Shown here: positions 4,354 to 48,152 of the stretch, in pieces | Layout: each line of letters begins with the position of its first letter | How positions within the stretch are numbered: the first letter of the stretch is position 1 | Origin: Patescibacteria group bacterium | GTDB lineage: Bacteria; Patescibacteriota; Minisyncoccia; 2-02-FULL-40-12; GWA2-44-9 | Assembly: GCA_038064515.1 (NCBI GenBank) | Contig: JBBTSY010000009.1 | Location: 2,155-66,154 of the forward strand | Reading direction: 5' to 3' | DNA: 64,000 nt | Program-made: the position numbers and the translations under genes | Notes under the pieces: model-generated | What the model saw: only the letters and a program-made list of their open reading frames with translations | Told to the model about the DNA's origin: nothing | The model's database searches: none

Positions 4354-5340
4354 ATGGTTTATGGCTTCTGGGAAAAACTTCAGCCAAAGGCTGATCCGCC
4401 TCTGGCGGGAAAACAGCCATTTTTCGTTTTGGCGCCGATGGCCGATGTCACCGATGCCGCATTTCGACAGATTATTTTACAATGCGGAAAACCCGATATC
4501 TTATATACGGAGTTTGTCTCGTGTGACGGATTGTGTTCTCGAGGCCGCGAACGGCTGATAAAGGACTTAATCTTTACAGAAAGTGAGCGCCCGATTGTTG
4601 CCCAGTTTTTCGGTTCAAAACCGGAGAATTTTTATAAGTGTGCCGAATTAGCAAAAAAACTTGGTTTTGACGGCATTGATATCAATATGGGTTGTCCTGA
4701 TCGCAAGATGATCAAGCAGGGCGCCGGTATCGGACTTTGTAAAACTCCTGAACTTGCGCGAGAGATCATTCGAGCTACCCAAGAAGGCGCGGCAGATATT
4801 CCCGTTTCCGTTAAAACACGCCTAGGTCTCTATGAAATAGATCTCGCCTGGATTCAAAATCTGCTCGACGCAAAGATTCCCGCGCTCATAGTGCATGGTC
4901 GCACTATGAAAGAAATGTCAAAGGTTCCCGCTCATTGGGATGTCATCGGCGAAGTTGCAAAAATGGCGAAAGATACCGGCACGCTAATCGTCGGCAACGG
5001 TGACATTATGAGTCGACAGGAGGGGATCGAGAGAGCGCAACAATACGGTATTGACGGCATTATGGTGGGGCGAGGCATTTTTTATAACCCTTGGTTTTTT
5101 TCAGTCAAAAACGAACCAGTCTCTGGCCGAAATACAAAAGATCGGCTGGCGCTTCTGCTTCAACACACTCTGCTTTTCAAGCAATTATGGGGCGATACAA
5201 AAAGCTTTGATCTGATGAAAAAATTCTATAAGGCGTATGTTTCGGGTTGGGATGGAGCAAAAGATTTACGGATTCAACTGATGAATGTAAAAAATGAACA
5301 GCAAGTAAGGGAAATTATAGAACCCTACGCAAATAGGTAG
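4354..5340 (+). CDS. dus: tRNA-dihydrouridine synthase
   Basis: VLAPMADVTD, DINMGCP and VKTRLG motifs of the Dus TIM-barrel family. Confidence 0.85.
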   Translation: MVYGFWEKLQPKADPPLAGKQPFFVLAPMADVTDAAFRQIILQCGKPDILYTEFVSCDGLCSRGRERLIKDLIFTESERPIVAQFFGSKPENFYKCAELAKKLGFDGIDINMGCPDRKMIKQGAGIGLCKTPELAREIIRATQEGAADIPVSVKTRLGLYEIDLAWIQNLLDAKIPALIVHGRTMKEMSKVPAHWDVIGEVAKMAKDTGTLIVGNGDIMSRQEGIERAQQYGIDGIMVGRGIFYNPWFFSVKNEPVSGRNTKDRLALLLQHTLLFKQLWGDTKSFDLMKKFYKAYVSGWDGAKDLRIQLMNVKNEQQVREIIEPYANR

Positions 5341-5404
5341 AGGTGTGACTGTAAAATAACACGCGGGAACCTTTTGGGGCTCCCGCGGGGGTGCGTGGAT
5401 AGAC

Positions 5405-5957: not shown

Positions 5958-8900
5958 ATGAAATCAAAAAGAAAAACTCCTACGCCAAAACTATTTCAGG
6001 AATATTACAAACAGCTCAACCCAGAGCAGAAAAATGCCGTTGATGCAATTGAGGGTCCGATTATGGTGATCGCCGGTCCCGGGACTGGCAAGACCCAGAT
6101 ACTGACGCTTCGTATTGCCAACATTCTTCAGCAGACGGATACGCCTCCTGAAGCAGTTTTAGCTCTTACGTTTACTGAATCCGGCGTAGTCTCCATGCGA
6201 AAGCGTCTCGCTGAAATTATCGGGAGCGCCGCATATCGCGTTGTTATTACCACGTTCCATGGTTTTTGTAATGACATCATTCGGAGCTATCCGGAGGAAT
6301 TTCCCCATATTATCGGTTCCGAAAGTATTACCGAAATTGAGCAGATAGAAATCATGCAACAGGTCATCGATACAGCTTCCATCAAGGAGCTTCGGCCGTT
6401 CGGCGACCGGTTCTATTATCTCAAACCTGCTATTCAGGCTATCAATACGTTGAAGCAAGAAGGTATCTCGCCGGAACGCTTCCGAACCTTGATCGACGCG
6501 GAAGAAAAGGCGTTCTCCGCCATCGATGATCTGTATTATGAAAAAGGAGCCTACAAGGGCAAAATGAAAGGTACGTATCAGGATCAGCTCAAACATCTGA
6601 AGCGCAATGCCGAACTGGCAACACTCTATGCCGCCTACCAGAAATCTCTGCGCGATAATAAGTTATACGATTATAGCGATATGATAATGGAAGTTGTGGC
6701 CATGCTGGAGCGCGACCCAGAGCTTCTCCTCACGCTTCAGGAGAAATACCTTTACTTTTTAGTAGACGAGCACCAGGATACGAACAATTCGCAGAATCGC
6801 ATTCTTGAATTAATTGCTAGCTACCATGACAACCCCAATCTGTTCGTGGTGGGTGATGAGAAACAAGCTATTTTTCGATTTCAGGGCGCATCGCTGGAAA
6901 ACTTCCATTACTTCAAGAATCTGTACAAAGGTGCCCAGATCATCGATCTCCAACATAACTATCGTTCCACGCAGACTATTTTGGACGTAGCCGTCTCGCT
7001 AATGAATCCCGTTAGAAGTCTCGCTCGCGCCAGAGGCGCGAGTCTTAAGGACCTCGGCGAGGCTACTTCTAACGGGATGAAACGCGGAGAGCTTAAAGCC
7101 CACAGCACATATTCTGAACAAAAAATCGCCCTGTATGAATTCACGACACCCGATGTCGAACAATATTTCTTGGCGAAAAGCATTGCCGATAAAATCGCAT
7201 CAGGCACGAAGCCAGAAGAGATTGCTATTTTGTATCGGGACAACGCCGATGCGATGCCAATCGCCCTGATGCTGGAGAAGGTCGGTATTTCATTCGCGAT
7301 TGAATCCGATCAGAATCTTCTCCGCGATGAGGACGTCCAAAAATTACTCTATATTTTGCGGGCGGTGAAAACATTCGGCGAACCGGGAGCGCTCTTGAAA
7401 ATGCTTCACGTCGATTTTCTCAAGATTGAGCCACTCGATATTTATAAAGTCGCGGAGTATAGTCGGGCACAACGGATGAATCCGTATGACGTCATTAAGA
7501 GTGACAAAGAGCTCAAAGCCACAAAAGTAGGAGATGTCAAAAGCCTCATAGACTTGTATACTAAGCTTTCATCATGGAAAATCGCTTCTGCTAACAAGGG
7601 CGCCGCCGAAACATTTGAAACAATTGTCCGCGATTCGGGTTTCCTGAATTACATTTTAAGTTTGCCGGATGCGTTCGAAAAAATCGAAAAAGTCCGGACG
7701 CTGTTCGACCAGATCAAAGGATTAATACAGACTCATCGCGATTATACGCTTGATCAGTTCCTTTCGTATCTCGATATGTTGCAGGAACATGAAGTATTGG
7801 TAAAAAATAAATTAATCACCCGAAACAGCGGCAATGTACGGCTGATGACGGCGCATCGGTCGAAAGGATTAGAGTTTGAATACGTGTATCTGACGAATAT
7901 GTACGACGGACACTGGGGCAATCGCCGCCGGATAGGCCATTTCAAGATTCCTAAATCAGCCTTTGCCCTTTCAAGCGCGAGCCTGATCAATGAAACACTC
8001 GACAATGAAGACGAACGCAATCTGCTGTATGTAGCCCTGACGCGTGCCAAGAAAGAAGTCGCGCTATGCTACGCCCGGCAAGGATATAACGGCCGTGAAC
8101 AGATTCCTTCGCAATTTATGCAGGAGATTGATCAGGATTTAATCATCGAAGGCGACAGTCAAATGTATGAGAAGGCCTTCCTTAAGGAAAAAGAGATTCT
8201 CTTTGCGCAACCAGCGATTACTAAACCCGGAGTAAAGGATAAGGAGTTTCTTAATCAGCTTTTCCGAAAATATGGCTTATCGGTAACGGCGCTCAACAAC
8301 TACCTGGAGTGCCCTTGGCGGTATTTCTATATAAACCTGCTCCGTATCCCGGAAGCTCCCAATAAGCACCTGGCATACGGTAATGCCGTACATTCGGCTT
8401 TGCGTGAATTCTTCGATTGCTGGGTGCAAGGAGATGATAAAGGCTCGGAATTTCTCATTAAGCGTTTTAAAGAATCGCTTTCCCATCAGCCCATTACTCA
8501 AGGCGACTATAGCGAGGCTCTAGCCAAGGGCGAACAGGCGCTCGCGGGCTATTATACGAATTATCACAGTACCTGGAACAAGAATATCCGCAATGAATTT
8601 AAAATAGACGGCATCGAACTGACGCCTGATGTTCGCTTAAACGGTACCATTGACCGCCTAGAGATTTTGGATAGCGCAGGCCTGCCTGCGCAGGCAGGAA
8701 AGGTTAATGTCATAGATTACAAAACAGGAAAGCCGTTATCACGAAACCAGATCGAAGGCGCTACCGCAACATCAGACGGAAATTATAAGCGGCAACTTGT
8801 ATTTTATAATCTACTTCTAAATCGATTTGATGACGGCAAGTATCGATTTCAACAGGGGATCATCGATTTCATTGAACCGGACATTAGAGGGAGCTTTAGG

Positions 8901-9056
8901 CGAGAGGCATTTAGTATTGATCCTAAGGAAGTAAGTGATCTTGAAGAGCAGGTCATGGCAGTGGCAGGTGAGATTATGAATCTTGATTTCTGGGAAAAGG
9001 GCTGTAAAGAAAAAGATTGCGAGTACTGCAAGCTGCGTAAATTACTGAATTCATAA
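5958..9056 (+). CDS. UvrD/PcrA-type SF1 helicase fused to a C-terminal RecB/Cas4-like PD-(D/E)xK nuclease with a Cys cluster (AddA-like)
   Basis: Walker A GPGTGKT, DExQD (VDEHQDTN), LTRAK. Nuclease motifs SVTALNNYLECPWRY, GTIDRLE, VIDYKTGK, QLVFYNLL. Terminal CKEKDCEYC cluster. Confidence 0.85.
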   Translation: MKSKRKTPTPKLFQEYYKQLNPEQKNAVDAIEGPIMVIAGPGTGKTQILTLRIANILQQTDTPPEAVLALTFTESGVVSMRKRLAEIIGSAAYRVVITTFHGFCNDIIRSYPEEFPHIIGSESITEIEQIEIMQQVIDTASIKELRPFGDRFYYLKPAIQAINTLKQEGISPERFRTLIDAEEKAFSAIDDLYYEKGAYKGKMKGTYQDQLKHLKRNAELATLYAAYQKSLRDNKLYDYSDMIMEVVAMLERDPELLLTLQEKYLYFLVDEHQDTNNSQNRILELIASYHDNPNLFVVGDEKQAIFRFQGASLENFHYFKNLYKGAQIIDLQHNYRSTQTILDVAVSLMNPVRSLARARGASLKDLGEATSNGMKRGELKAHSTYSEQKIALYEFTTPDVEQYFLAKSIADKIASGTKPEEIAILYRDNADAMPIALMLEKVGISFAIESDQNLLRDEDVQKLLYILRAVKTFGEPGALLKMLHVDFLKIEPLDIYKVAEYSRAQRMNPYDVIKSDKELKATKVGDVKSLIDLYTKLSSWKIASANKGAAETFETIVRDSGFLNYILSLPDAFEKIEKVRTLFDQIKGLIQTHRDYTLDQFLSYLDMLQEHEVLVKNKLITRNSGNVRLMTAHRSKGLEFEYVYLTNMYDGHWGNRRRIGHFKIPKSAFALSSASLINETLDNEDERNLLYVALTRAKKEVALCYARQGYNGREQIPSQFMQEIDQDLIIEGDSQMYEKAFLKEKEILFAQPAITKPGVKDKEFLNQLFRKYGLSVTALNNYLECPWRYFYINLLRIPEAPNKHLAYGNAVHSALREFFDCWVQGDDKGSEFLIKRFKESLSHQPITQGDYSEALAKGEQALAGYYTNYHSTWNKNIRNEFKIDGIELTPDVRLNGTIDRLEILDSAGLPAQAGKVNVIDYKTGKPLSRNQIEGATATSDGNYKRQLVFYNLLLNRFDDGKYRFQQGIIDFIEPDIRGSFRREAFSIDPKEVSDLEEQVMAVAGEIMNLDFWEKGCKEKDCEYCKLRKLLNS

Positions 9057-19574: not shown

Positions 19575-19804
19575 GGAAGGTGTTAAAAATGTTCCTAAAG
19601 GATAGCATTTTTAAAGCTTTTTGACTAGTCGACCGGGAGTATGCCTGGTCATTTGATTTCACCTACTAAACCAGCTATAGTTGGTGGGATGAATCCCGCA
19701 CAAAGCAGCCCCAACGGGTCTGATAGTCAAAACTGTAGTATGTCACATGTATTCTATAATCATCAGTACAAAGCTATGCCCAGTTTTGTACTGCTTCTAA
19801 CGGG

Positions 19805-20806
19805 ATGAAAAAGATAGGCATTGATCTTGGAACCACTAATACAGTTGTTTTCGTGCCTAAAAAAGGCATAGTTATCAACGAGCCGTCTGTTGTCGCGGTG
19901 TCAGTTCTCGATAATAAAATTATAGCCGTTGGCAATCTTGCGAAGGAAATGATCGGCCGCACTCCCGATAGCATCATCGTGTCCCAGCCACTAGTAGACG
20001 GCGCCATTGCGGATTATCGGATTACCGGCGCGATGCTTAAATATTTCATAAAGAAAGCAATTGGCGTTTTTAGCTTTATGAAACCGGAAGTTTTAATTTC
20101 GGTACCGGCCGGTATTACGTCAACGGAAAAACGCGCCGTCATCGAATCAACGCTCAACGCCGGAGCAAAAGCAGTCTATCTCGTTAAAGAGCCGGTGCTT
20201 GCCGCCATCGGATCAAAAATTTCCATCAACAGCCCGATTGGAAATATGATCCTGAATATCGGCGGAGGAACAACCGAGCTGGCTGTAATTTCGCTGGGCG
20301 GCATTGTAAGCTGGTCATCAGTCCGTATCGGCGGTAATAAGTTTGATTTCACTATCGTTGAATACGTTAAAAAGAAGCACGGTCTTGCTATTGGCGAACG
20401 AACCGCCGAACTTATTAAAATAAATATTGGCAGTGCGGTGAAGCAAGCGCAAGAAGATAAAATCAATATCCGTGGCCGCGACCTTGCGACCGGACTGCCT
20501 AAGACTATCGAAATTACTACGAATGAAATTACAGAGGCTCTAAATGAAAGTTTGCGTGAGATTGTCCAGATCGTGAAGAGCGTACTCGAGGTAACTCCGC
20601 CGGAACTCTGTTCAGACATCATGGATCGCGGAATTGTAATATCGGGTGGCGGCGCGCTACTTCGCAATATTGATCAACTGATCACCCGTATAACAGGTGT
20701 TCCCGCCCGCATAGCCGACGATCCGCTTTTCTGCGTCGCTCGTGGTACCGGCATCGTGCTTGAAAACCTGGATGTCTATAAGAAAAATGTCATCGCAAAG
20801 CGCTAA
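19805..20806 (+). CDS. mreB: rod-shape-determining actin homolog MreB
   Basis: [17 protein letters not shown]...GGGTTELAVISLGG... Confidence 0.9.
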   Translation: MKKIGIDLGTTNTVVFVPKKGIVINEPSVVAVSVLDNKIIAVGNLAKEMIGRTPDSIIVSQPLVDGAIADYRITGAMLKYFIKKAIGVFSFMKPEVLISVPAGITSTEKRAVIESTLNAGAKAVYLVKEPVLAAIGSKISINSPIGNMILNIGGGTTELAVISLGGIVSWSSVRIGGNKFDFTIVEYVKKKHGLAIGERTAELIKINIGSAVKQAQEDKINIRGRDLATGLPKTIEITTNEITEALNESLREIVQIVKSVLEVTPPELCSDIMDRGIVISGGGALLRNIDQLITRITGVPARIADDPLFCVARGTGIVLENLDVYKKNVIAKR

Positions 20807-20955
20807 TGAATCCTCACACTCACCTGACGAGCTGTTCCTGGTGGCGAGGATGGTCATGGATAATAGCATAATATGTCGTGTAATAGTTTGCTGCGCTGTA
20901 AGCACTTCGCTTAGCGGAACGCGAGCCATTACTCGTCAGCGAGTGTAAGGATGAA
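20806..20955 (+). repeat. TIR-140 intergenic element, copy 1 (ATGAA-[TCCTCACACTCACCTGACGAG ... CTCGTCAGCGAGTGTAAGG]-ATGAA)
   Basis: 19-21 bp terminal inverted repeats. Conserved internal blocks CTGTTCCTGGTG and GGAACGCGAGCCATTACT. Overlaps the mreB stop codon and directly abuts the GT4 start codon. Confidence 0.7.
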
Positions 20956-22024
20956 AATCGCACTTGTTCATGATTGGCTTGACATGCTCGGCGGTGCGGA
21001 GCGGGTTCTTATCGAATTGCATAAGATGTTTCCCGAAGCGCCAATCTATACGTTATTTGCCGAAGAGCAATTTTTAAAAAAGTATCTGCCCGAAGCACGT
21101 ATCATAACGAGTGGCATTCAAAATCTTCCATTTCGCCGCAGTGCTTTATGGGCGCCGGCAATGTGCGTGGCGATAGAGTTGTTTGATCTCTCCGCGTACG
21201 ATATTGTCATTTCTTCATCGGTATTTTTTTCAAAGGGATTAGTGTTGCGTCCTCGGACAAAACATATTTGCTATTGCTATAGTCCTACGCGGCAGTTGTG
21301 GGATCGAAATATTGAATCAAGACGAGGGATATTTGCCGCGATAGGCAAGAATATTTTGAGACTGTGGGACAGCCATTCGTCTGGACGGGTCGATTATTTT
21401 GTGGCGATTTCAAAGCACGTCCAGGATCGCATACGAAAATATTATCGTCGCGATTCAAAAATCATTTACCCGCCCGCAACATCGTTTGCACGGAAAGCCT
21501 CAACGGCTCCCGGAGAAGATTATTACCTTATCATTTCGCGACTGTACCCCCACAAAAACCTCGACATTGCTATCGAAGCTTTTAATAAACTGGGGTATAG
21601 TCTCTATATCATCGGTGACGGGCCGCTAAGAAACAGGCTTTCAAAACTGGCAGACGCTAATATCCGATTTTTAGGAGAGCTAAACGATGACGAAGTGGCT
21701 CGCTATTATCAATATGCCAAGGCATTTATTATGCCGCAGGAGGAAGATTTCGGATTGACCGCTGTCGAAGCAATGAGTTTTGGCAAGCCGATTCTTGCTT
21801 TGCGCAAAGGCGGCGCCCTTGAAATTGTCCAGGAAGGAATTAGCGGAGAATTTTTTGACGATCCGATCGCAGAAGGGCTTGCCGACGGCGTACGCAGATT
21901 AAACGAACAAACCTACGATTCGGAGATGATTAAAACGGCCGCTAAGAAATTTTCTACTGATACTTTCCGTACCGAAATACAAAACCTCATCCATGAAACT
22001 TTTTCTCATCACCATCAATTATAA
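20951..22024 (+). CDS. glycosyltransferase family 4 (GT1/GT4 fold)
   Basis: EEDFGLTAVEAMSFGKPILALRKGGALEIV motif typical of glycosyl transferases group 1. Confidence 0.8.
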   Translation: MKIALVHDWLDMLGGAERVLIELHKMFPEAPIYTLFAEEQFLKKYLPEARIITSGIQNLPFRRSALWAPAMCVAIELFDLSAYDIVISSSVFFSKGLVLRPRTKHICYCYSPTRQLWDRNIESRRGIFAAIGKNILRLWDSHSSGRVDYFVAISKHVQDRIRKYYRRDSKIIYPPATSFARKASTAPGEDYYLIISRLYPHKNLDIAIEAFNKLGYSLYIIGDGPLRNRLSKLADANIRFLGELNDDEVARYYQYAKAFIMPQEEDFGLTAVEAMSFGKPILALRKGGALEIVQEGISGEFFDDPIAEGLADGVRRLNEQTYDSEMIKTAAKKFSTDTFRTEIQNLIHETFSHHHQL

Positions 22025-22859
22025 CGGATCTAAAGATACGATTGCCTTCGCCCGTTCGCTTAATCAGCAGACCGATCCTGATTTTTCATTGATTATCATT
22101 GATAATGCTTCGACTCCCGAGGAGCTTATCGCCGTTGAACAACTGCGGAATCTACCGTTTGTGAATCTCGTTCCCAGTGAGACGAATCTCGGGTTTTCCG
22201 GTGGTAATAATGTCGGCATTCGAAAGGCGCTCCAACAGGACGCCGACTGGGTACTACTCATTAATAATGATACGCATGTTGAGTTAAGCTTCATATTATG
22301 CCTTAAACAAGGCTTGAAAGAGCGGCAGGGAATCGTGGGCGTACCGTTGCAGAAAAATGAACGTGTAGCGTATGCCGGCAATGTGGCGTGGCTAAAACCG
22401 ACTCTTTTGCATCAGTACGAGCCGTTAAAGAACGGAATAAACCATTATGCCATCGGGGCAGGCCTTGCCATCCATCAAGGCGTATTTGGAAAGATCGGTT
22501 TCCTGGATGAGCGGTATTTTCTTTACTTTGAAGATGCTGATTTCACGCTGACGGCGCGGAAGGCCGGGATTTCCATTTCCTTTCTCACCGAACCGAAGAT
22601 TCATCACCAGATTTCTCAATCAACGGACAAGCTTGGGTCGCCACTACTCTTACGGTACCACTATCGCAATATGTTTTTATTCAATCAAAAACACGCACCC
22701 GCGCATATTAAGATTTTATTGCCCCTGTGGGTATTTTTAGGTATAGTGAAACAAACGCTAAAACTGATTTTTCTTCCGTCCGAACGTCCTGAATCGAAAG
22801 CAATTATCACCGGCATCAAGGATTATGTGATGGGAAAATTCGGCAAGCTCCATGCTTAA
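21993..22859 (+). CDS. glycosyltransferase family 2
   Basis: FLITINYNGSKDT...IIIDNASTPEE...GFSGGNNVG. GT-A fold with DxD. Confidence 0.8.
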   Translation: MKLFLITINYNGSKDTIAFARSLNQQTDPDFSLIIIDNASTPEELIAVEQLRNLPFVNLVPSETNLGFSGGNNVGIRKALQQDADWVLLINNDTHVELSFILCLKQGLKERQGIVGVPLQKNERVAYAGNVAWLKPTLLHQYEPLKNGINHYAIGAGLAIHQGVFGKIGFLDERYFLYFEDADFTLTARKAGISISFLTEPKIHHQISQSTDKLGSPLLLRYHYRNMFLFNQKHAPAHIKILLPLWVFLGIVKQTLKLIFLPSERPESKAIITGIKDYVMGKFGKLHA

Positions 22860-23955
22860 AATTGGCATTGAATGCGAATCTATCGAGTACGATTCGTACG
22901 GCATTGCCCGTGCAATCAATAAACTCCTCGAAGAAATAGTCCGTCGCCCAGAACTCCAGCAAGAGTTCAAATTTTATTTATATTTCAAATCCAAGATTCC
23001 AAACTATCCATATCTGAATAACCCCATTTTCACCAAACGCATTATCGGTCCTGACTCATTCAGCCTATATTACTACATCATGCTACCGATTCGTCTTCTG
23101 TTTGACGGCTTGCACGTCATGTATTTTCCTAATTACATGCTACCGCTGATCTTTGTGGGGAAATCGCTTGTCCTATCTGTGCACGATGCTTATTACGAGG
23201 CTCGGTCCAGGAACATTCCGTTTCGATATCGACTGGCGTATCGAATTTTTGCCACTTGGGGCGCGGTACATGGCACAAAAGTCATGGCTATCTCGGAGTT
23301 TGGCAAGCGGGAGTTGGAGCAGGTCTATAGAATTAACCCAAACCGCATCGTCGTAAATTATCTAGCCGTCGATCCGCCGGCGGACGTACCTCCGTATTCG
23401 CTTCAACGATATTTCCTTTTTGTCGGTCAGGCATTTCCCCGGCGCTTTCTTAGGGAGACGCTGTTGGCGTTTGAAAAGATCGCTCGCGCGTATTCAGATG
23501 TTAATTTTATCGTAGTCGGAAAAGATAAATATTCTCCATCGATTATTCAAAATCTCATCGGAGAGATTAATGAACATTTAGGGTCCGAGCGGATAATAAT
23601 CAAAGATCAGGTAAGCGATGATAAGCTTGCTTCTTTATATGCCGCCGCTCAGGCAGTCACATATATTTCTACCAAAGAAGCCTTTGGCTTGCCGCCAATC
23701 GAAGGATTGGCGTATAAGGCCATGCCGATCGTGGCCGATACCGCGATGAGTCATGAATTGTTCGACAAAGCGGCATTTTTCGTGAAGCGTCCCGATTCAG
23801 TTGAGGAAATTGCGCAGGTTTTAGAAGAATCACTGATAAATACCGAAAAGCGAAATGCAATTCTCGCGGCGCGTGAGGCCATCCTCCAGAAATTTACATG
23901 GCAGGGACATGCGGACCGGTTTCTCGCTATCGTTCGCGATATTGCTCAACGCTAA
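22852..23955 (+). CDS. glycosyltransferase family 4
   Basis: C-terminal KEAFGLPPIEGLAYKAMPIVAD GT1-type motif. Confidence 0.75.
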   Translation: MLKIGIECESIEYDSYGIARAINKLLEEIVRRPELQQEFKFYLYFKSKIPNYPYLNNPIFTKRIIGPDSFSLYYYIMLPIRLLFDGLHVMYFPNYMLPLIFVGKSLVLSVHDAYYEARSRNIPFRYRLAYRIFATWGAVHGTKVMAISEFGKRELEQVYRINPNRIVVNYLAVDPPADVPPYSLQRYFLFVGQAFPRRFLRETLLAFEKIARAYSDVNFIVVGKDKYSPSIIQNLIGEINEHLGSERIIIKDQVSDDKLASLYAAAQAVTYISTKEAFGLPPIEGLAYKAMPIVADTAMSHELFDKAAFFVKRPDSVEEIAQVLEESLINTEKRNAILAAREAILQKFTWQGHADRFLAIVRDIAQR

Positions 23956-23956
23956 T

Positions 23957-25537
23957 ATGCTTAAACTTCGACCCGCTCACTATCTCTTCATAATTCAGCT
24001 TCTGTTTTTTATCCTTGTCATTCTAGGAATTTTGCCGCGGGCGGTAATGCTGTATGTTACTGCTTTTATTGCAATAGTTTTAATGCGCCAGCCGCTCAAG
24101 GAAGGAGTTTTATTTTTCGTTCAATCAATTCCGTTCTTCGTGGCGCTGCCCTTTACTGAAGGCTTTGATAGTTTCAACGCCTGGCGCATCATTTTGCTTC
24201 TTCTTTTTTTGAAATGGGCTTTTGAAGTGGAATTAAAACCACGGTTGGTATCGCTACTGGATGCAATTCGCAGGCCGGGCGATTTCATAAAGAAGCATCC
24301 GTACGGCGCAGGAGGAGTTTTACTTTTGCTCCTGGCATTTTTATCGCTTATCGACGCACCGCAAGTAGGCGCCGGAATAAAGCGGATTATTTATTTCACG
24401 AACATCGCATTTATCGGAATAATCATTCACGATCTTATCCGGCGTGATAAAAATTTCACACTGGAACTTATTCGAGCGATTAGAATCCCGACGATGCTCG
24501 TGATCTTGGCGGGGTTTATTCAAGTTGCCTCGACATATTTTATCGATATCTATCAATTCATGCGCCTGTGGGGAGAGGGGATTCAATGTAATCAATTCGG
24601 CAGTCAGTGGTGCGAGATCGCGGTGCGCCTTGGCAACACCTGGTTTGCATATTATGGGGAACAGCTGTCGTTGCGAGTTTTTTCTCTGTTTCCTGATTCT
24701 CATTCTTTTCCGCAATTCGTACTTTTGGGCATACCGGCATTATTGGCATATGGAGTCTCAAATATCACCTCGGCGCCGGAACGTTTAAATCGCTTTAAGG
24801 TCCTCATTATGACCAGGGGGAGGCTTGCCATTCTTTGGGTGCCTGCGGCGCTTCTAATCGCAATTTTAAGCGGTACGCGAGGTATTTGGGCCGCTAGCTT
24901 AGGAGTTGTTCTTATGATTATCGCGATAAACTACCTTTTAGTCCATTTTCGAGCTTCCCAAACGCATAAAACGTTTTTTCGCTATATTACGTCCTACTTA
25001 ACGCTTTTCTTTTTGCTTTTCAGCATTGCGTATCCTATTTTTACGTCGCCGCAATTTTTATTATCAAAAGGGGATTTCGGCCTATTTAGAAACAGGGTTA
25101 GATCGATTATCGATTTTGGCGAGACATCGAATCGCCAGCGTATTGAGATTTGGAAGAAATCGGTTGCTTCAATCGGCCGCCAGCCATTTCTGGGCGTGGG
25201 GATTGGAAATTTTCCCGTCGTGCTTGGTCAGGATATCTTCCTTGCCCGTGCTGGATCATCGGCCCATAATATTTATCTCCATATCGCGGCAGAAATGGGC
25301 ATACCGGCACTGCTTGCAGTTTTGGGTCTCTTAAGTCTTTTCTTTATCCGCATCTACAAAACATACGTTCTGGAACAAAACCCATTTGTCATGACGTATC
25401 TTGCCGGAGCAATGCTCTTCATCCCCTGGGTTTTAATTTATTCTTTGACCGATGTAGCTCTTTTTGATGAACGCGCCATGCTCTTTTTTACAACAACTTT
25501 AGCGCTCATCGCGGGAGTGGACCGCTATTATGAATAA
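23957..25537 (+). CDS. O-antigen ligase/polymerase (Wzy_C)-like polytopic membrane protein
   Basis: More than 10 TM segments. AHNIYLHIAAEMGIPALLAVLGL resembles the Wzy_C signature. ATG at 23957 immediately after the upstream stop. Confidence 0.65.
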   Translation: MLKLRPAHYLFIIQLLFFILVILGILPRAVMLYVTAFIAIVLMRQPLKEGVLFFVQSIPFFVALPFTEGFDSFNAWRIILLLLFLKWAFEVELKPRLVSLLDAIRRPGDFIKKHPYGAGGVLLLLLAFLSLIDAPQVGAGIKRIIYFTNIAFIGIIIHDLIRRDKNFTLELIRAIRIPTMLVILAGFIQVASTYFIDIYQFMRLWGEGIQCNQFGSQWCEIAVRLGNTWFAYYGEQLSLRVFSLFPDSHSFPQFVLLGIPALLAYGVSNITSAPERLNRFKVLIMTRGRLAILWVPAALLIAILSGTRGIWAASLGVVLMIIAINYLLVHFRASQTHKTFFRYITSYLTLFFLLFSIAYPIFTSPQFLLSKGDFGLFRNRVRSIIDFGETSNRQRIEIWKKSVASIGRQPFLGVGIGNFPVVLGQDIFLARAGSSAHNIYLHIAAEMGIPALLAVLGLLSLFFIRIYKTYVLEQNPFVMTYLAGAMLFIPWVLIYSLTDVALFDERAMLFFTTTLALIAGVDRYYE

Positions 25538-26555
25538 ACCTCTCGTCACAATTAATTTGGTCGTCAATAACGGAGAAAAATATCTTCGTTATTGTCTGGA
25601 TCACGTCAGAAGGCAAACGTACGAGAATTTGGAGGTCAATGTCTTTGATAACGCTTCAATTGATTCGACACGTGATATTGTTCAAAGAGAATATCCTGAA
25701 TTTAACCTGATCGCACACCCCCAAAACTTGGGCATGTGGCCGGGTCAGGAGGAGGCGCTCAAATCAAGTCATGGCTTTTATATTGTCGGGCTCTCTGTCG
25801 ACGTAATGATGCATCCGCAATTTGTGAAAAACGCTATCCGGGTGTGCGAAGCTGATCCTTTGATCGGCGCTCTGCAAGCTAAAATACTGCGCTATGATTT
25901 CCAACAACTGGCAGACGGATCATATGACGCTTCGAAAATCATTGATACATGCGGATTTCGCCTTGCTCGATCGCGTCGGGTGATGAATGTTGGTCACGGA
26001 GCCTTTGATTATGGCCAGCATGACCAAGCAACTGAAATATTTGCCGCAGAAGGAGCGGTGCCATTTTTCAAAAAAGAAGCCCTGGAAGCCATCCGCATCG
26101 ACGGCGCTATTGTCGATCACGACTATTTCTGGTACGGAGACGACCTAGACCTTACTTGGCGAATGCAGCTATTTGGATGGAAGCAGTGGTATGATCCCGA
26201 CGTCATTGCATATCATGACCGCTCGACGACAAAAGGACACAGCCGGAGCATGATGGATTATTTCCGCAGAGTTAAGACACGACAGCAAATACCGATCAGA
26301 AAACGCATTCTCGACTGGTCGAACGTGCGGTTTACAATTATTAAAAATGATTATATAATAAACATCTTGAAGGACGCGCCCTACATCGCGATTAGGGAGA
26401 TTCAGGTTTTAGGTTTCGCGCTGCTGTTTGAGCCCCAGATTTTTCTAGAAATTCCTCGCTTTCTCGGGCTTCTTCCGGCGATGCTCCGCAAGCGTCGGCT
26501 CGTGATGGCGAAAGCGAAAAAATCTCCTCAAGAAATGCACACATGGTTCATCTAA
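25530..26555 (+). CDS. glycosyltransferase family 2
   Basis: VTINLVVNNGEKYL...VFDNASIDST GT2 N-terminal motif. Confidence 0.75.
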   Translation: MNKPLVTINLVVNNGEKYLRYCLDHVRRQTYENLEVNVFDNASIDSTRDIVQREYPEFNLIAHPQNLGMWPGQEEALKSSHGFYIVGLSVDVMMHPQFVKNAIRVCEADPLIGALQAKILRYDFQQLADGSYDASKIIDTCGFRLARSRRVMNVGHGAFDYGQHDQATEIFAAEGAVPFFKKEALEAIRIDGAIVDHDYFWYGDDLDLTWRMQLFGWKQWYDPDVIAYHDRSTTKGHSRSMMDYFRRVKTRQQIPIRKRILDWSNVRFTIIKNDYIINILKDAPYIAIREIQVLGFALLFEPQIFLEIPRFLGLLPAMLRKRRLVMAKAKKSPQEMHTWFI

Positions 26556-26571
26556 TTATCTTATTATCGGC

Positions 26572-26723
26572 ATGAATCCTCACACTCACTGAAGAGCTGT
26601 TCCTGGTGATGGCGAGGGTTTATATGAATATATCCATAATACACTGATTGTATGACTTGCTTGTCCGCAATACCAAGTAAGGCGGAACGCGAGCCATTAC
26701 TCTTCAGTGAGTGTGAGGATGAA
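26572..26723 (+). repeat. TIR-140 intergenic element, copy 2 (ATGAA-[TCCTCACACTCACTGAAGAG ... CTCTTCAGTGAGTGTGAGG]-ATGAA)
   Basis: Perfect 19-20 bp TIR with compensatory A/T changes relative to copies 1 and 3. Abuts the LCP start codon. Confidence 0.7.
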
Positions 26724-27744
26724 TTTACAGCCAGACTTTAATGAAAAGCCTCGCCTCCGTTTTAACCGCAAAGGGGTAATTTTGAGTTCAATCTTCATTG
26801 TTATGTTTCTACTTGGTGCCGGCTATACTGCGTATAATTGGTCTGATAGCCTATTAGTGGATGCTGGTAAAGCCAACTGGAAGGAGAATCTTTTTCCGTT
26901 TGGCGGCGATAAGCCGGTGGAAACCGATTACGTGATGCCGAAAGCCGAAGCCAACCGATATGATATTCTTATTCTTGGCGTTCGAGGAAAAGATGACCCG
27001 GACGGCGGAAATTTAACTGATACCATCATGCTGTTTAGCCTCGATAAGACAACGGGCCGATCAACACTCGTTTCTATCCCGCGCGATCTCTATGTGCGGA
27101 TCAGTAAAGACAAGAAGGAAAAAATCAATGCCGTATATGCCTATCTTGGCTTAAGAAGCACCGAAAAACTCGTTTCTCAAATCACCGGCGTGTATGTCGA
27201 TAATAGTATCGTTTTTGATTTCTCTTCATTCAAGAAAATCATCGATGATCTCGGAGGGATCGATATCGTTCTCGATAAACCATTTGAAGAAACAACGCAG
27301 TGGGGATATGTATTTAAGCTTCCAACGGGCCTCAACCACTTAGACGGGGAAAACGCTTTATATTATGTCCGATCCCGCTACTCCTCAAATGACTTTGATC
27401 GCGCTCGCCGACAGCAGCAAGTTATGTTTGCCATCAAAAATAAGGTGATTCAGATGGACTTTCTTTCAAGCCCTGTTCGCAGTTTGAGCCTCCTAAACAC
27501 GCTCAAGAAAAATATCAATACCGACATTAATCTCCTTGATATTAAAGGTTTGATTGAACTTGCTCAACAGGTAAACGTCGATAAAGTAAATCGCCATATT
27601 CTTTCCACGGCTGATTATCTCTATGAAAGTGTTGGTGAGGCGGGTGCTTATGTGCTTTTACCGCAGGGAGATAATTTCAATCGTCTTAAGACTTTTTTCC
27701 AGGATTTTCTGAAACCCGTCTCTGCCGTCTCAAAGAAATCATGA
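26719..27744 (+). CDS. LytR-CpsA-Psr (LCP) family cell-wall polymer ligase
   Basis: TM anchor plus ILILGVRGKDDPDGGNLTDTIMLFSL...SIPRDLYV LCP signature. ATG at 26719 is preferred over the GTG at 26707, which lies inside the repeat. Confidence 0.8.
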   Translation: MNLQPDFNEKPRLRFNRKGVILSSIFIVMFLLGAGYTAYNWSDSLLVDAGKANWKENLFPFGGDKPVETDYVMPKAEANRYDILILGVRGKDDPDGGNLTDTIMLFSLDKTTGRSTLVSIPRDLYVRISKDKKEKINAVYAYLGLRSTEKLVSQITGVYVDNSIVFDFSSFKKIIDDLGGIDIVLDKPFEETTQWGYVFKLPTGLNHLDGENALYYVRSRYSSNDFDRARRQQQVMFAIKNKVIQMDFLSSPVRSLSLLNTLKKNINTDINLLDIKGLIELAQQVNVDKVNRHILSTADYLYESVGEAGAYVLLPQGDNFNRLKTFFQDFLKPVSAVSKKS

Positions 27745-28592
27745 TGCTCTCTGTCATCATCCTAAGCTACCGTAACCCCGCCCTTTTGCGTCTCTGCTTG
27801 AAATCGCTTGTCGCGGCACTTCCGAAAGACTTCAACTATGAAATAGTCGTCGTTGATAATGCCACTCGGTCCGAGACCCGGAATGTGGTCTGTGACGAAT
27901 TCAAAGAAGCCTTTCGTTCTATTAAGTTCGTACCGATCAAGAAAAATTCCGGCTATACGCGAGGAATTAATGAAGGTATTAGTGCCGCTCAAGGCGAATA
28001 TTTCCTAGCGCTAAATCAGGATATCGTGGTGTTAAAAGGCGCTGTTGAAAAGCTTCTCTTGTATTTTAAAGATCATCTTGAAATAGGATTAATCGGTCCG
28101 GAGCTCCTTAATTTTAACGGCACACACCAAGACTCTTATTTTCGCTTCTACACACCCGTAACAATCTTTTATCGACGCATCGGATATCTGCCATTTGCTC
28201 GAAGAATACTAGACCCGTTTCTTTTAAGGGAAACAGATCCCTCAAAAGTCCAAAAGCCCGACTGGGTTTCGGGAGCGGCATTTATGACTTCTCGGGAGGC
28301 AATCAAAAAAGTCGGCCTGCTCGACGAAAAACTTTTCCATTATTTCAGTGACGTTGACTGGGCACGAAGATTTTGGGAGAATGGATATCAAGTTGTTTAT
28401 TATCCAGAAGCAAAGTTTTACCATTACCTGGGACGAAGTTCGAAGGGCAAACTGTTGATCTTCGATATATTTTTCAATCAAACAACCCGTTGGCATATCA
28501 AGGATTTCTGGAGATATTTCAGAAAATACGGATTCCTAACGCGGCATTCTGCGAGGAACATCTCACAGCCATCACATGCAACCACTTACTAG
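27741..28592 (+). CDS. glycosyltransferase family 2
   Basis: LSVIILSYRNPALL...VVVDNATRSET GT2 motif. Confidence 0.8.
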   Translation: MMLSVIILSYRNPALLRLCLKSLVAALPKDFNYEIVVVDNATRSETRNVVCDEFKEAFRSIKFVPIKKNSGYTRGINEGISAAQGEYFLALNQDIVVLKGAVEKLLLYFKDHLEIGLIGPELLNFNGTHQDSYFRFYTPVTIFYRRIGYLPFARRILDPFLLRETDPSKVQKPDWVSGAAFMTSREAIKKVGLLDEKLFHYFSDVDWARRFWENGYQVVYYPEAKFYHYLGRSSKGKLLIFDIFFNQTTRWHIKDFWRYFRKYGFLTRHSARNISQPSHATTY

Positions 28593-29811
28593 AAAAATTT
28601 TCATTCTTACTGTGCTTTTATCGCTCGGCGCAGGATTTATTTCCGGTTATTCTTATACGCGCTACCAAGAAGGGAACACGCTTAAAACAAGTCTTCGAGA
28701 ACTCATCAATAAGGAATCGGGTCAGCCGGACAATGTTGATTTTTCTCTATTTTGGGATGTTTGGGACACACTCCAGGCAAAATATGTTAATAATGACACC
28801 ATTGAAACTCAAAAGCTCATCTACGGGGCGATCTCGGGTATGGTTAACAGTGTCGGCGATCCATATACCGTTTTCTTCGAACCATCCACAAGTAAAAAAT
28901 TCCAAGAAGAAATTTCCGGCGCTTTTAGCGGCGTGGGCATGGAAATCGGCAAACGAAATAATTTGCTCACGGTTATTTCTCCGATTAAAGACAGTCCCGC
29001 GTTTCGCGCAGGCATCAAGGCGGGAGATCGCATTCTAGAAATTAACACTAGGGTCACAACTGACATGACGGTAGAAGAAGCCGTAAATCTCATTCGCGGC
29101 AACAAGGGTACAAAAGTGAAAATGATGTTGTCACCAAGCAATAGCAATGAGACCCGGGAAGTTGAAATTATCCGAGATACCATTAAGATTCCCGCAGTCC
29201 AATGGACCCTCCGCGATGGTAATGTTGCTCACATCGAAATTTTTGTCTTTAATTCCAACGTTGATGGCGAATTCAAAAAAGCAGTTCAGGAAATTATTAA
29301 ATCAAAAGCTAATCGCATCGTACTCGATCTTCGCAACAATCCCGGAGGTCTCCTTGATTCAGCGGTAAATCTTGCCGGATACTTTCTGGATAAGGGCAGT
29401 GTCGTGACAATCGAGAATTTCGGCGACGGAACCAAGAACGAATTCAAGGCTTCCGGCAATGCCGAGTTGAAAAATTACCCGACTGTCGTCTTGATTAACG
29501 GCGGTTCGGCCTCGGCATCGGAAATCCTCGCCGGAGCGCTCCACGACAACCGCAGTATCAAACTTATTGGCGAAACGAGCTTCGGAAAAGGTTCAGTGCA
29601 GGAACTGGCGAAATATGTTGACGGATCTTCATTAAAGGTTACCATAGCCAAGTGGTTAACTCCTTCCGGTATCTCAATTTCGGAAAAGGGCATTAACGCA
29701 GATATAGAAATTAAATTTGATCCTAAAGAAGTCGAATCAGGCGCCATCATCCAAGGGGAGCAGGGAAAAGACCCGCAACTTGATAAAGCGCTTAAAGTCG
29801 TCAAACAGTAA
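28576..29811 (+). CDS. ctpA: carboxyl-terminal processing (S41, tail-specific) protease with PDZ domain
   Basis: PDZ region. S41 catalytic region VVLINGGSASASEILAGAL...GETSFGKGSVQ. Confidence 0.85.
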   Translation: MQPLTRKIFILTVLLSLGAGFISGYSYTRYQEGNTLKTSLRELINKESGQPDNVDFSLFWDVWDTLQAKYVNNDTIETQKLIYGAISGMVNSVGDPYTVFFEPSTSKKFQEEISGAFSGVGMEIGKRNNLLTVISPIKDSPAFRAGIKAGDRILEINTRVTTDMTVEEAVNLIRGNKGTKVKMMLSPSNSNETREVEIIRDTIKIPAVQWTLRDGNVAHIEIFVFNSNVDGEFKKAVQEIIKSKANRIVLDLRNNPGGLLDSAVNLAGYFLDKGSVVTIENFGDGTKNEFKASGNAELKNYPTVVLINGGSASASEILAGALHDNRSIKLIGETSFGKGSVQELAKYVDGSSLKVTIAKWLTPSGISISEKGINADIEIKFDPKEVESGAIIQGEQGKDPQLDKALKVVKQ

Positions 29812-29815
29812 TATT

Positions 29816-30262
29816 ATGCGCGTAATCTTATTACAAAATATCAAAGGAGTCGGACAAATTGGCGATGTAAAGGACGTAAATGACGGATATGGCCGCAATT
29901 TTCTTCTTGCCCGCAATCTCGCCAAGCCGGCCACTACTACGGCTTTGAAGCAGGCGGAGGAGCTTCGCTCAAAGCGCGAAGTAATCATGAAGGAGCAAAA
30001 AAACAAGGCTCGCGAAGTCGCTGATAGGATTAAGGATGTAACGCTTGAACTCAAGGAAAAAACCAACGAGAAGGGCAAACTATTTGCCGCCGTCGGTAAG
30101 AAAGAAATTTCTCACAAATTTAAGGAAAAGACCGGAGTTCATCTGGAAGATGATATGATTCAGCTCGATGAGCATATTAAGACTGTCGGCGAGCATACCG
30201 TTCAGCTTGAGCTGGCTCCGGAAGTTATTGTGCCGCTCAAAATAATCATTACCGAGGCATAG
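29816..30262 (+). CDS. rplI: 50S ribosomal protein L9
   Basis: MRVILLQNIKGVGQIGDVKDVNDGYGRNFL. The ATG at 29816 is preferred over the upstream in-frame ORF start. Confidence 0.85.
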   Translation: MRVILLQNIKGVGQIGDVKDVNDGYGRNFLLARNLAKPATTTALKQAEELRSKREVIMKEQKNKAREVADRIKDVTLELKEKTNEKGKLFAAVGKKEISHKFKEKTGVHLEDDMIQLDEHIKTVGEHTVQLELAPEVIVPLKIIITEA

Positions 30263-30277
30263 ATGAGCTCTATAAAA

Positions 30278-30306
30278 CCCCTCCGCCATGGCGGAGGGGT
30301 TTTATA
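30278..30306. terminator. bidirectional intrinsic terminator (CCCCTCCGCC/GGCGGAGGGG) between the convergent rplI and rpmA
   Basis: 10-bp GC stem flanked by an A-run and a T-run. Confidence 0.65.
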
Positions 30307-30317
30307 GTCGATAAACG

Positions 30318-34150: not shown

Positions 34151-35380
34151 TTAGAGATAGTCCGAAGGATTTAGCGAACCATCGAAATAATTAAAATAGA
34201 GCTGTCCCGCTTTAGTATAAGTAAAGAAGTCTTGATAGAGGCTAAGGTGAACATGTGAACCCGTAGAATTGCCTGTAGAGCCTTCATATCCAACGGCTTG
34301 TCCCTGGGTCACTTTTGTACCGACGCGAAGAGGCGCAAACGCGCTCATGTGGCCATAGACACTTACTAGTCCAAAACTGTCATGTTGAACGGCTACCCAG
34401 TTCCCGAACCCTGAATTGAAACCGTTAGCAATAATCTCTCCGGAGCCGATAACCTTAATCGGGGTTCCATAACCTCCGGCGATATCAATCCCATTATGCG
34501 GAGATCCCCCGTATGCTCCTCGTTTTGCATAGGTCGTCATACCGTAGCCCTGCGTCAAACGATAGGAGTCCTCCGGATATGTAAAGAGCTTTGTTCCTCG
34601 AGGAGGAACTCCCGTAGCTTTTACACGTATGATAAATAATCCGCCCGCAACAGCATCAGATTCCAGCTGTTGCATCTCGAGAAAAAGTTGACTGCGCTTT
34701 TTTTCTGCGGCAGTAAGCATTTTCTGATATTCTGCTTCTTGGCCCTTAGTCTGAGCTAGGATGGTGTCCTTTTGAGATTTTACCCCGGTTAAAGAGGAGC
34801 GCTTTGCGCTCTGTTCCTGATTCAGAGAAATAAGCTCCCCTTTCTTATCTTCTAGTCCAACTTTAGAAATCTCCAGCTGCTGCTTTTGATTGCGAAGATC
34901 GCCAATTAATTCCAGAAGTTTATCATTCACGTTTGCCAGTTGTTGAGCCTCGCTCAAAAACGTCGAAAGATTTTCATTCTTCATGAGTGTAGCCATTAAG
35001 TTCTCGTTATCGCGCTGATTCAAAAAAATAAGCAGTTCACCGACTGTCTCCCGCCGACGATCAATAGTCTGTTGAGTTTCAAAAATATTTCCCTCCATGT
35101 CGGTAATTTCTACTTTTGTTTTACTGATTTTTGTAGACGTCAAAATAATCTGCTGTTCCAGGCCCTGGATCTCTTTCTTGATAATCGCGATGTCTCGCTG
35201 AAGCGTTTGGGCTTTTGCGCGTTCTTCAGCGATACTTCCTTTGAATTGCTTAGCTTGCTCTTCAAGCACTTCAATTTGTTTAAGTAATTCAGCAATGCGT
35301 GCTTCGTTGGCGGCAAATGCTGGCACGACAAAATTAAAGGTAGCAATACTGATGAGCATGGTGCTAATAAATCGTTTCAT
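34151..35380 (-). CDS. M23/LytM-family peptidoglycan endopeptidase with signal peptide and coiled-coil
   Basis: C-terminal HNGIDIAGGYGTPI...GSTGNSTGSHVHLS M23 motifs. Start MKRFISTMLISIA at 35380, directly abutting repeat copy 3. Confidence 0.8.
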   Translation of the reverse strand: MKRFISTMLISIATFNFVVPAFAANEARIAELLKQIEVLEEQAKQFKGSIAEERAKAQTLQRDIAIIKKEIQGLEQQIILTSTKISKTKVEITDMEGNIFETQQTIDRRRETVGELLIFLNQRDNENLMATLMKNENLSTFLSEAQQLANVNDKLLELIGDLRNQKQQLEISKVGLEDKKGELISLNQEQSAKRSSLTGVKSQKDTILAQTKGQEAEYQKMLTAAEKKRSQLFLEMQQLESDAVAGGLFIIRVKATGVPPRGTKLFTYPEDSYRLTQGYGMTTYAKRGAYGGSPHNGIDIAGGYGTPIKVIGSGEIIANGFNSGFGNWVAVQHDSFGLVSVYGHMSAFAPLRVGTKVTQGQAVGYEGSTGNSTGSHVHLSLYQDFFTYTKAGQLYFNYFDGSLNPSDYL

Positions 35381-35524
35381 CCTCACACTCACTGACGAGA
35401 TATGGCTCGCTCCGCACAGCGTAGTGCTAGGGAGAAGCTTTTTCATATTCGACAGATAATTACTGCCATACTCAATATCATCGCCATTTCTAGGAACAAC
35501 TCGTCTGTGAGTGTGAGGATTCAT
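35376..35524 (-). repeat. TIR-140 intergenic element, copy 3, reverse orientation, abutting the M23 peptidase start and overlapping the gltX stop
   Basis: Read on the minus strand: ATGAA-[TCCTCACACTCACAGACGAG ... CTCGTCAGTGAGTGTGAGG]-ATGAA. Confidence 0.7.
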
Positions 35525-37467: not shown

Positions 37468-37592
37468 AGTGAGGGTATATCCTTGAAGGAGCCTCTCGGA
37501 GGCGCATGCGCATGGTTAAGAGCATGCGACGAGAGCGAGCGCGAATTCCTCGCTGGGGAATTCGACGCGTGCTCCTGAAAGGATATATCCGA
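37468..37592. repeat. GC-rich nested palindromic element E (outer IR GGTATATCCTTGAAGGAGC/GCTCCTGAAAGGATATATCC; core CTCTCGGAGGCGC ... GACGCGT)
   Basis: Inverted repeats read directly. Shares core motifs with the elements at 48043-48141 and 54873-54972. Confidence 0.55.
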
Positions 37593-43725: not shown

Positions 43726-43794
43726 ATCACCATTATACTTGATTGCGATTTTTTATAAACCCGCTTAAACTTTATTTCATAAAATTTTGACTGA

Positions 43795-48023: not shown

Positions 48024-48042
48024 TTGTATAAGTGGTTCTGAA

Positions 48043-48141: not shown

Positions 48142-48152
48142 GAAGAACCGAT

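Follow-up and report, generated by a model that had tools for sequence, protein, structure and literature searches.

Short inverted-repeat elements at start codons in a streamlined Patescibacteria genome

MITEs (miniature inverted-repeat transposable elements) such as Nezha of cyanobacteria, whose mobility was shown by filled versus empty orthologous sites (PMC3184786), and MITEAba12 of Acinetobacter (PMC6382973) are shorter than 200 bp, carry inverted repeats, are flanked by a target-site duplication (TSD), lack a transposase, occur in multiple copies and are predicted to form a stable hairpin. The same holds for a repeat, called family 1 here, that occurs three times (20806-20955, 26572-26723 and 35376-35524) in a 64,000-nt stretch of a Patescibacteria group bacterium (contig JBBTSY010000009.1), hereafter the window. 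Family 1 differs from Nezha and MITEAba12 in its asymmetric 4-mer TSD (TGRA), in a terminal A that completes an ATG, in its location almost only at start codons, and in its host, a streamlined Patescibacteria genome of Paceibacteria type from Hainich groundwater; no cognate insertion sequence was identified in the window or in the loci fetched from other contigs.

Other short repeats share single traits with it. Correia elements (CREE/NEMIS) of Neisseria are ~100-150 bp long, have inverted repeats of ~26 bp and are co-transcribed with their neighbours (PMC2649163); the helix of their inverted repeats is an RNase III substrate and changes expression (PMC2649163, PMC10969869). They duplicate TA and have an IHF site and promoters at their ends, whereas family 1 duplicates TGRA, has another inverted-repeat sequence without similarity to theirs and showed no recurring promoter-like site in scans, and we rejected an assignment to this group. 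Rickettsia palindromic elements (RPEs) are palindromes of ~100-150 bp that are inserted in frame in genes and translated (PMC10969869). One copy of a second family described below (family 2), which adds 25 amino acids to a helicase in frame, and the open third copy of family 1 are RPE-like, but most copies here lie at a start codon with stops in the frame of the upstream open reading frame (uORF), their hosts are of an unrelated lineage, and no homology was detected at the sequence level. REP2 of Neisseria and the upstream repeats of Borrelia lie directly upstream of genes and are described as containing promoter, ribosome-binding site (RBS) and ATG (PMC3184786). REP2 supplies a whole expression cassette and is not known as a TSD-flanked transposon with inverted repeats; family 1 supplies only the A of the ATG and resembles REP2 solely by its position beside the ATG. 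Literature searches of limited extent brought up neither a MITE that duplicates start codons nor any MITE from bacteria of the Candidate Phyla Radiation (CPR).

Copies, empty sites and target-site duplication

The family-1 copies in the window are 140-143 nt long, have ends 5'-TCC...GGA-3' and terminal inverted repeats of ~21 bp, and are 74-78% identical to each other across ~145 aligned nt. With up to two mismatches, the 13-mer arm core TCCTCACACTCAC matched the window 7 times against 0.51 expected, a count reached in 0 of 100 shuffles, and six of the seven matches are the six arms of copies 1-3. The arms are complementary at 21/21 positions in copy 2 and at 20/21 in copy 3, and those of copy 1 have decayed (2 mismatches and a 1-nt bulge). 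A preliminary description of the window had reported the three repeats, conserved internal blocks and a compensatory arm change in copy 2. All of this stands: the paired change (C to A, G to T) is present in both arms, and the blocks are conserved, copy 3 having TTGTTCCTAGAA in the first block and a 2-nt deletion in the second. The copies have no coding capacity of their own beyond junk uORFs of 6 to 21 codons or a frame that reads through.

Gene calls also bear out the reported junctions. The downstream ATGAA is the start of the GT4 (20951), LCP (26719) and M23 (35380, minus strand) genes at copies 1, 2 and 3, and the upstream ATGAA overlaps the stop codon of mreB (19805-20806; TAATG) at copy 1 and of gltX (35521-36876, minus strand; ATGA) at copy 3. 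At copy 2 it lies 16 nt past the stop of the GT2 gene, which ends at 26555, and overlaps no stop. A search with an nhmmer profile brought up no additional family-1 copies, either in the window or in relatives' loci; a candidate partial copy on contig L012 (E = 7e-4) is a GC-rich coding region instead.

We ran a 19-base arm pattern on the GTDB representative genomes and on a metagenome collection. The former gave five single matches in unrelated taxa, which is chance level, and the real copies came from the latter; viral contigs, plasmids and phages held no matches to the element, and a protein search with the in-frame translation of copy 3 found no candidates. A copy upstream of the ribosomal protein L31 gene rpmE, in the divergent rpmE/rpsB spacer of contigs L010 and L017, is identical to copy 2 at 152/152 positions, while other family-1 pairs are 74-87% identical. 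Further copies precede a DUF5671 membrane protein in L018 and a TPR protein in L015, so that the genes downstream of the seven family-1 sites encode GT4, LCP, M23, RpmE, a DUF5671 protein, a TPR protein and one protein of unknown function. L010 and L017 are from one Hainich population (coverage 35-36, 99% identity), and we infer that these contigs and the window are parts of one genome.

The preliminary description had suggested that orthologous intergenic regions be compared for empty sites, and these were found for copy 2, copy 3 and the rpmE copy on contigs of syntenic relatives reached via S2 and GltX homologues. The rpmE site is empty, with a single ATGAA, in L021/L022 (S2 84% identical), L023/L024 (77%), L030 (82%) and L031 (69%), and the spacer, 240 nt long in L010, measures 87-89 nt in L021-L024 and in L030. 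The copy 2 site in L028 (GltX 90%) reads ...TTATCAGC-ATGAA-TTTACAGCC..., which matches the window exactly once the element and one repeat are taken out. At the copy 3 site, L029 (GltX 73%) has ...GTCGTA-ATGAA-AAAG, where the gltX stop and the M23 start overlap. For copy 1, an uninterrupted mreB-GT4 junction would show TAATGAAAATC.

A scan for a 4-bp TSD next to TCC...GGA located a second family. Family 2 has the ends TCCCGT...ACGGGA (inverted-repeat sequence TCCCGTTAGA) and the same TSD and TCC...GGA limits as family 1. It is found in the window at the mreB start and in a helicase ORF, in L017, which has one copy at 5220-5342, both at the tsf start and in a non-coding spacer, in L025 likewise at the tsf start, and in L028 (11349-11462) at the gltX/M23 junction, where the element TCCCGTAAGAAAGCAG...CTGCTTCGTACGGGA has the same TSD as family-1 copy 3 of the window. 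Its copies share only ~10 terminal nt; the inner arms differ between copies and are complementary within each copy, a pattern for which simple recognition of the ends by a transposase gives no explanation. L010 lacks both family-2 copies of L017 in spite of 99% identity, a presence/absence polymorphism within the population.

This pair of contigs defines the ends of the element. The empty spacer site of L010 reads AATCC-TTCA-CTTTTT and the filled site of L017 reads AATCC-TTCA-[TCC..GGA]-TTCA-CTTTTT, from which follow the 4-bp TSD, the TCC...GGA limits and the terminal A of the element. The TSD is exactly 4 bp, TGRA (TGAA or TGGA), and the fifth base A on the right belongs to the element. The preliminary description had allowed for a target-site duplication of ATGAA, but a length of 5 bp is ruled out by the L010/L017 pair and by a copy flanked by GTGAA...ATGAA. 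Five full family-1 copies are flanked by ATGAA/ATGAA, and ATGAA is also seen where the chimeric contig L002 has its 3' junction; the copies in L018 and L015 have ATGGA/ATGGA. As the flank varies by site, it is part of the target and not of the element. An A precedes TGRA in 11 of 12 known left flanks, and the preferred target is A-TGRA.

The loci have the features of MITEs, namely a length below 200 nt without a transposase, terminal inverted repeats, a site-dependent TSD and empty sites. On this sequence evidence, a non-autonomous DNA transposon of a new family is present at all three loci, and an identical copy at the unrelated gene rpmE indicates that family-1 copies have moved recently. 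The mobile-element reading, one of two in the preliminary description, is thus borne out by empty sites in syntenic relatives, the site-dependent flank, the identical copy at rpmE and the family-2 polymorphism. A DDE-type transposase acting in trans and preferring A|TGRA would move the element; a Pfam search of the window found no transposase domain.

Neighbouring classes fit less well. REP/REPINs mobilised by RAYT are inverted pairs of short palindromes without a target duplication, and an assignment to them was rejected: a 4-bp duplication is present, the arms are not themselves palindromes, and no RAYT/Y1 transposase domain was found in the window. An IS200/IS605-derived PATE, which has subterminal hairpins in place of terminal inverted repeats and TSD and inserts 3' of a fixed tetra- or pentanucleotide in one orientation, was rejected because of the long terminal inverted repeats and of matching flanking 4-mers that vary with the site; only the fixed orientation is similar. 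More broadly, HUH transposition of the IS200/IS605-PATE type or site-specific recombination could have replaced the staggered cut of a DDE enzyme, with ATGRA or TGRA as a carried core rather than a duplication. The asymmetric target, the fixed relative orientation (7/7), the strong hairpin potential and arms that are complementary within a copy and different between family-2 copies would suit such a mechanism. The flanking 4-mers, however, always match and change together by site (TGAA/TGAA, TGGA/TGGA, TTTA/TTTA), the long terminal inverted repeats come without separate subterminal hairpins, and neither an HUH nor a recombinase gene was detected in the window, which makes this mechanism very unlikely.

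Start codons as insertion sites

When the element inserts into A|TGRA at a start codon, its last A and the duplicated TGRA rebuild an ATG flush with its 3' end. Both ends are alike, hence any insertion into TGRA yields ATGRA on the right, in either orientation of the element. The coding sequence is left intact, and the old start codon, kept upstream, opens a short uORF into the 5' arm (MNPHTH...). We propose that the element persists at gene starts because its terminal base and the duplicated target rebuild the ATG. That the last base of an element rebuilds the start codon illustrates how a transposon can last where a genome has hardly any DNA to spare.

We compared the observed sites with a background derived from crude gene calls. 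By these calls the window has 1160 TGRA and 326 ATGRA sites, 136 and 31 of them intergenic, and 18 of its 66 genes begin with ATGRA; start codons are then expected to make up 12% (TGRA) or 37% (ATGRA) of the sites at which an insertion disrupts nothing. Family 1 is located at start codons in 7/7 cases (P = 3e-7 for the TGRA background, 9e-4 for ATGRA), and both families together in 11/13 (P = 3e-9 or 6e-4). The concentration on start codons is unusual and statistically supported, and is the stand-out feature of the new MITE family. A preference for A-TGRA together with purifying selection in an 87%-coding genome would account for most of this pile-up. Insertions would persist only where nothing breaks, at start codons, at a few neutral intergenic sites and in frame without stops. 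We consider it probable that the loci are MITE copies that rebuild the ATG, that they pile up at start codons through A|TGRA preference and selection, and that expression survives by way of the uORF.

Several observations weigh against this explanation. No autonomous partner with the same inverted repeats turned up in scans of the GTDB representatives, the metagenome collection and viral, plasmid and phage sequences. Changes in the arms come in matched pairs that preserve complementarity (copy 2; the inner arms of family 2, which differ between copies), and a transposase that reads double-stranded ends would not obviously need this complementarity. The assignment of copy 1 rests on homology to the other copies, whereas empty sites were recovered for copy 2, copy 3 and rpmE. 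Internally, the elements at all seven family-1 sites point the same way with respect to the gene that follows (two-sided P ~0.016), which the regeneration of ATG leaves unexplained as both ends of the element are TCC...GGA. The same start codons were hit repeatedly: the gltX/M23 start by family 1 in the window and independently by family 2 in L028, and the tsf start by family 2 in L017 and L025, with a 14-nt remnant of a family-1 3' end in L010. These repeated hits hint at targeting beyond the 5-nt motif. Finally, in most copies 80-125 nt separate the uORF stop from the real AUG, which means that simple coupling by termination and reinitiation cannot be general.

Real targeting is conceivable in view of the orientation bias and of the repeated hits; the transposition machinery would then recognise start codons or initiation regions beyond A-TGRA, in a fixed orientation, and the association would be mechanistic and not a matter of survivorship. 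The share of start codons stays high even against the ATGRA-only background (P ~6e-4), three of the four demonstrably recent insertions are at start codons, and different elements have reached the same ones independently in sister lineages. On the other side, one family-2 copy is intergenic with GTGAA, off a start codon, and another is within the helicase ORF; a mini-element in L015 has the TSD TTTA; the flanks show no consensus beyond A-TGRA; and the targets mix promoter-proximal starts of the leaderless type with operon-internal overlapping starts. The sample is small, and crude gene calls underlie the background. We regard such homing as possible but doubtful.

A wider reading takes the elements as a Paceibacteria-type MITE superfamily adapted, possibly targeted, to start codons, in which TCC...GGA and TGRA rebuild the ATG and uORF translation, RNase III or a shunt at the helix foot keeps expression going. 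We think this rather unlikely. If true, even the starts of essential genes would be colonised in a tiny, largely leaderless genome, and families would repeatedly take the same start codons.

RNA structure and expression of the downstream genes

Transcribed copies are predicted to fold with -55 to -63 kcal/mol in sense orientation and about equally well in antisense, as expected of a palindrome at the DNA level, and the first two bases of the AUG are at the foot of the predicted helix. A very stable helix that includes these bases, the position of the window copies ahead of GT4, LCP and M23, and a few paired changes that preserve helices are what one would expect of a shared cis-regulatory RNA leader whose long-range helix sequesters the start region of envelope genes. 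The preliminary description had offered such an envelope regulon as its second reading, which the evidence does not support. Orthologous junctions in L028, L029, L021-L024, L030 and L031 are without the element, with genes and flanks conserved in these close relatives, and a copy 100% identical to copy 2 precedes an unrelated gene. Cell-envelope genes stand downstream only as a matter of the local gene content of the window; elsewhere the copies precede rpmE, DUF5671, TPR and unknown-function genes, and family 2 is found at tsf, at mreB and in the helicase ORF. With such targets there is no coherent gene set and no envelope regulon. The two strands fold alike, and covariation is uninformative with 5 distinct sequences, in which 4 pairs have double changes and 12 of 500 shuffles reach the score, within the stated false-positive range of the tool. 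An Rfam scan of the window at gathering thresholds returned three tRNAs only, and for copies 1 and 2 permissive scans yielded nothing above noise (E >= 0.19). We hold this reading to be scarcely tenable, and a documented mobile element takes the place of the regulon lead.

A hammerhead ribozyme was also considered, since CTGACGAG resembles CUGANGA. Copy 3 and the copies in L018 and L015 have CAGACGAG instead, the motif pairs with the other arm, and no Rfam ribozyme was found at E <= 10.

The suggestion that the element delivers a promoter and RBS did not hold up either. Scans of the copies for sigma-70 promoters found none that recurs, the sole internal match being an antisense one (9/12) in copy 2, and the 12 nt ahead of the rebuilt ATG (GTGAGTGTGAGG) are not -10-like. 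GAGG (AAGG in copy 1) is indeed present in the 3' arm, but it directly abuts the downstream ATG at a spacing of 0 nt, whereas in E. coli a Shine-Dalgarno (SD) sequence works at 5-9 nt from the start codon; the element-free orthologues also lack an SD. In this lineage a TAnAAT box lies 6-8 nt ahead of the ATG in many called genes, and SDs are few (gene starts in L028, L029, L023 and L025; window 43726-43760). Among the insertion targets, rpmE and the L015 gene (TACAAT, 7 nt, ATG) have starts of this type. From these starts, leaderless initiation seems to be common in this Paceibacteria-type lineage, and the insertions would then be a natural test of translation start beside a 20-bp helix in a seemingly largely leaderless lineage.

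If the element is co-transcribed, the AUG would be trapped by its arms at the base of a 20-bp helix. Most likely, in the model that we prefer, ribosomes starting at the retained old AUG would translate the 5' arm, melt the helix and expose the rebuilt AUG. The uORF encodes MNPHTH before its stop in copy 2 and the rpmE copy and has 20-21 codons in copy 1 and in the L018 and L015 copies. Two copies would be special cases: in copy 3 the uORF is open, allowing in-frame read-through as a possible 48-aa N-terminal extension of M23, and in the family-2 copy at mreB it has 39 codons and its TGA stop overlaps the mreB ATG (ATGA stop/start overlap). Instead of melting, the helix might be cut by RNase III. 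Correia elements are cut by this enzyme at their inverted repeats (PMC10969869), and rnc is kept in at least 90% of CPR genomes (PMC12641178).

Hosts might also make use of this arrangement, in which case start codon, uORF, helix and rebuilt AUG would act as a translational coupling device, a shunt or an RNase III site that tunes the downstream gene. The architecture is uniform by construction, each start-codon copy having a uORF into the 5' arm, and the helix foot juxtaposes both ATGRA copies. The Correia precedent for RNase III processing and the position ahead of important genes that need expression (tsf, mreB, rpmE) are consistent with co-option, and the orientation bias could reflect selection at the transcript level. 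Yet the insertions are polymorphic and not kept between sister species, uORF length and stop are not conserved (6 to 39 codons, or open), the arms of copy 1 have decayed, and remnants show that elements are lost again. Co-option therefore appears improbable to us, and survival of expression through uORF translation stays the preferred model.

Remnants, other palindromic elements and genomic context

The features of both families in the window are listed in Table 1. Two MITEs bracket mreB, family 2 at its start and family 1 (copy 1) at its stop. The helicase copy sits in frame at an internal ATGAA of a 1032-aa UvrD/PD-(D/E)XK ORF (5958-9056) and adds its 25 aa (MNPVRSLARARGASLKDLGEATSNG) where the UvrD_C domain begins. 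The family-2 remnant at 43709-43720 is in frame, adds PVRD and is absent from the L028 and L029 orthologues; it was probably left after a deletion between GACATT microhomologies. At 1868-1897 of L015, a 26-nt mini-element of two 13-nt arms only (TCCCACACTCATG|CATGAGTGTGGGA) is flanked by TTTA on both sides. It sits just past a hairpin that resembles an intrinsic terminator. In the sequence at hand, elements occur at roughly one per 10 kb, and insertion, polymorphism and remnants together speak for active MITE turnover in a streamlined Patescibacteria genome.

Table 1. Coordinates of family-1 and family-2 features in the window.
Feature	Position	Strand	Description
Family-2 element in helicase	7003-7081	+	71 nt at 7007-7077; perfect 13-bp arms; TGAA duplication
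Family-2 element at mreB	19690-19809	+	112 nt at 19694-19805; TCCCG...CGGGA; TGAA on both sides; flush with mreB start (19805)
Copy 1, left junction	20806-20810	+	A + left TSD TGAA (20807-20810); original GT4 start codon; overlaps mreB stop TAA
Copy 1, uORF	20806-20871	+	21 codons, junk; opened by original GT4 start codon
Family-1 MITE copy 1	20811-20951	+	141 nt, TCC...GGA; 5' arm 20811-20831, 3' arm 20932-20951
Copy 1, last base	20951	+	A, the A of the GT4 ATG
Copy 1, right TSD	20952-20955	+	TGAA; bases 2-5 of the GT4 coding sequence
Copy 2, left junction	26572-26576	+	A + TSD TGAA; original LCP start codon
Copy 2, uORF	26572-26592	+	MNPHTH and stop
Family-1 MITE copy 2	26577-26719	+	143 nt; perfect 21-bp inverted repeats
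Copy 2, right TSD	26720-26723	+	TGAA within LCP start ATGAA
Copy 3, right TSD	35376-35379	-	TGAA within M23 start ATGAA
Family-1 MITE copy 3	35380-35519	-	140 nt; 20/21 arms; in-frame open from upstream ATG
Copy 3, left junction	35520-35524	-	A + TSD TGAA; original M23 start codon; overlaps gltX stop (ATGA)
Family-2 5'-arm remnant	43709-43720	-	12 nt TCCCGTTAGAGA; directly after ATGGA start of 181-aa membrane protein

Further palindromic sequences were seen in the window and in relatives. Upstream of priA, at a distance of 12 nt, lies a palindromic element of 104 nt (37476-37587; TATA|TCCTTGAAGGAGC...GCTCCTGAAAGGA|TATA) that occurs in slightly decayed form in L028 as well; it may be an older third type with TCC...GGA ends. 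A 22-nt inverted repeat at 48034-48149, GGTTCTGAAGCAATGTGATATT and its reverse complement, is 91% complementary with arms 72 nt apart and adjoins grpE; it may be a palindromic element or a regulatory hairpin. In L025 (~2800-2990) and also in L026, a palindromic insert of ~113 nt (AGGACTTT...AAAGTCCT) separates promoter-like boxes from the ATG of rpmE, a third kind of element at the rpmE start, in a relative with 76% S2 identity.

Proteins identical to MreB and GltX of the window are also encoded on contigs from Hainich groundwater collected on 0.1-µm filters (ENA ERZ12926xx), and the nearest named relatives are Candidatus Yanofskybacteria, at ~59-67% identity (S2, GltX). Two public contigs (L001 and L003) end inside copy 1, and L002 joins mreB via the element to an unrelated gene, as repeats typically break assemblies. 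Gene calls are affected as well. The public call of M23 has 457 aa from the upstream ATG, including the 48-aa extension (L032, 11353-12726), and in mechanical ORF lists GTG starts fall within the 3' arm, which yields N-termini of the form MSVRM... (L010, 10862-11125; L018, 258-1208). Such element-derived extensions are probably spurious. The elements thus break or chimerise metagenome assemblies and distort gene calls.

Three observations concern the window at large. Two 54-nt direct repeats with 98% identity, whose starts are 94 nt apart, lie between recR and rplU (54262-54409). A perfect palindrome of 19+19 nt at 30270-30307 (CTATAAAACCCCTCCGCCA|TGGCGGAGGGGTTTTATAG) between convergent ORFs resembles a bidirectional terminator. 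Cumulative GC skew peaks at ~20000-30000, where gene orientation shifts from mostly plus to mostly minus, and this looks like a fork-convergence (terminus-like) region.

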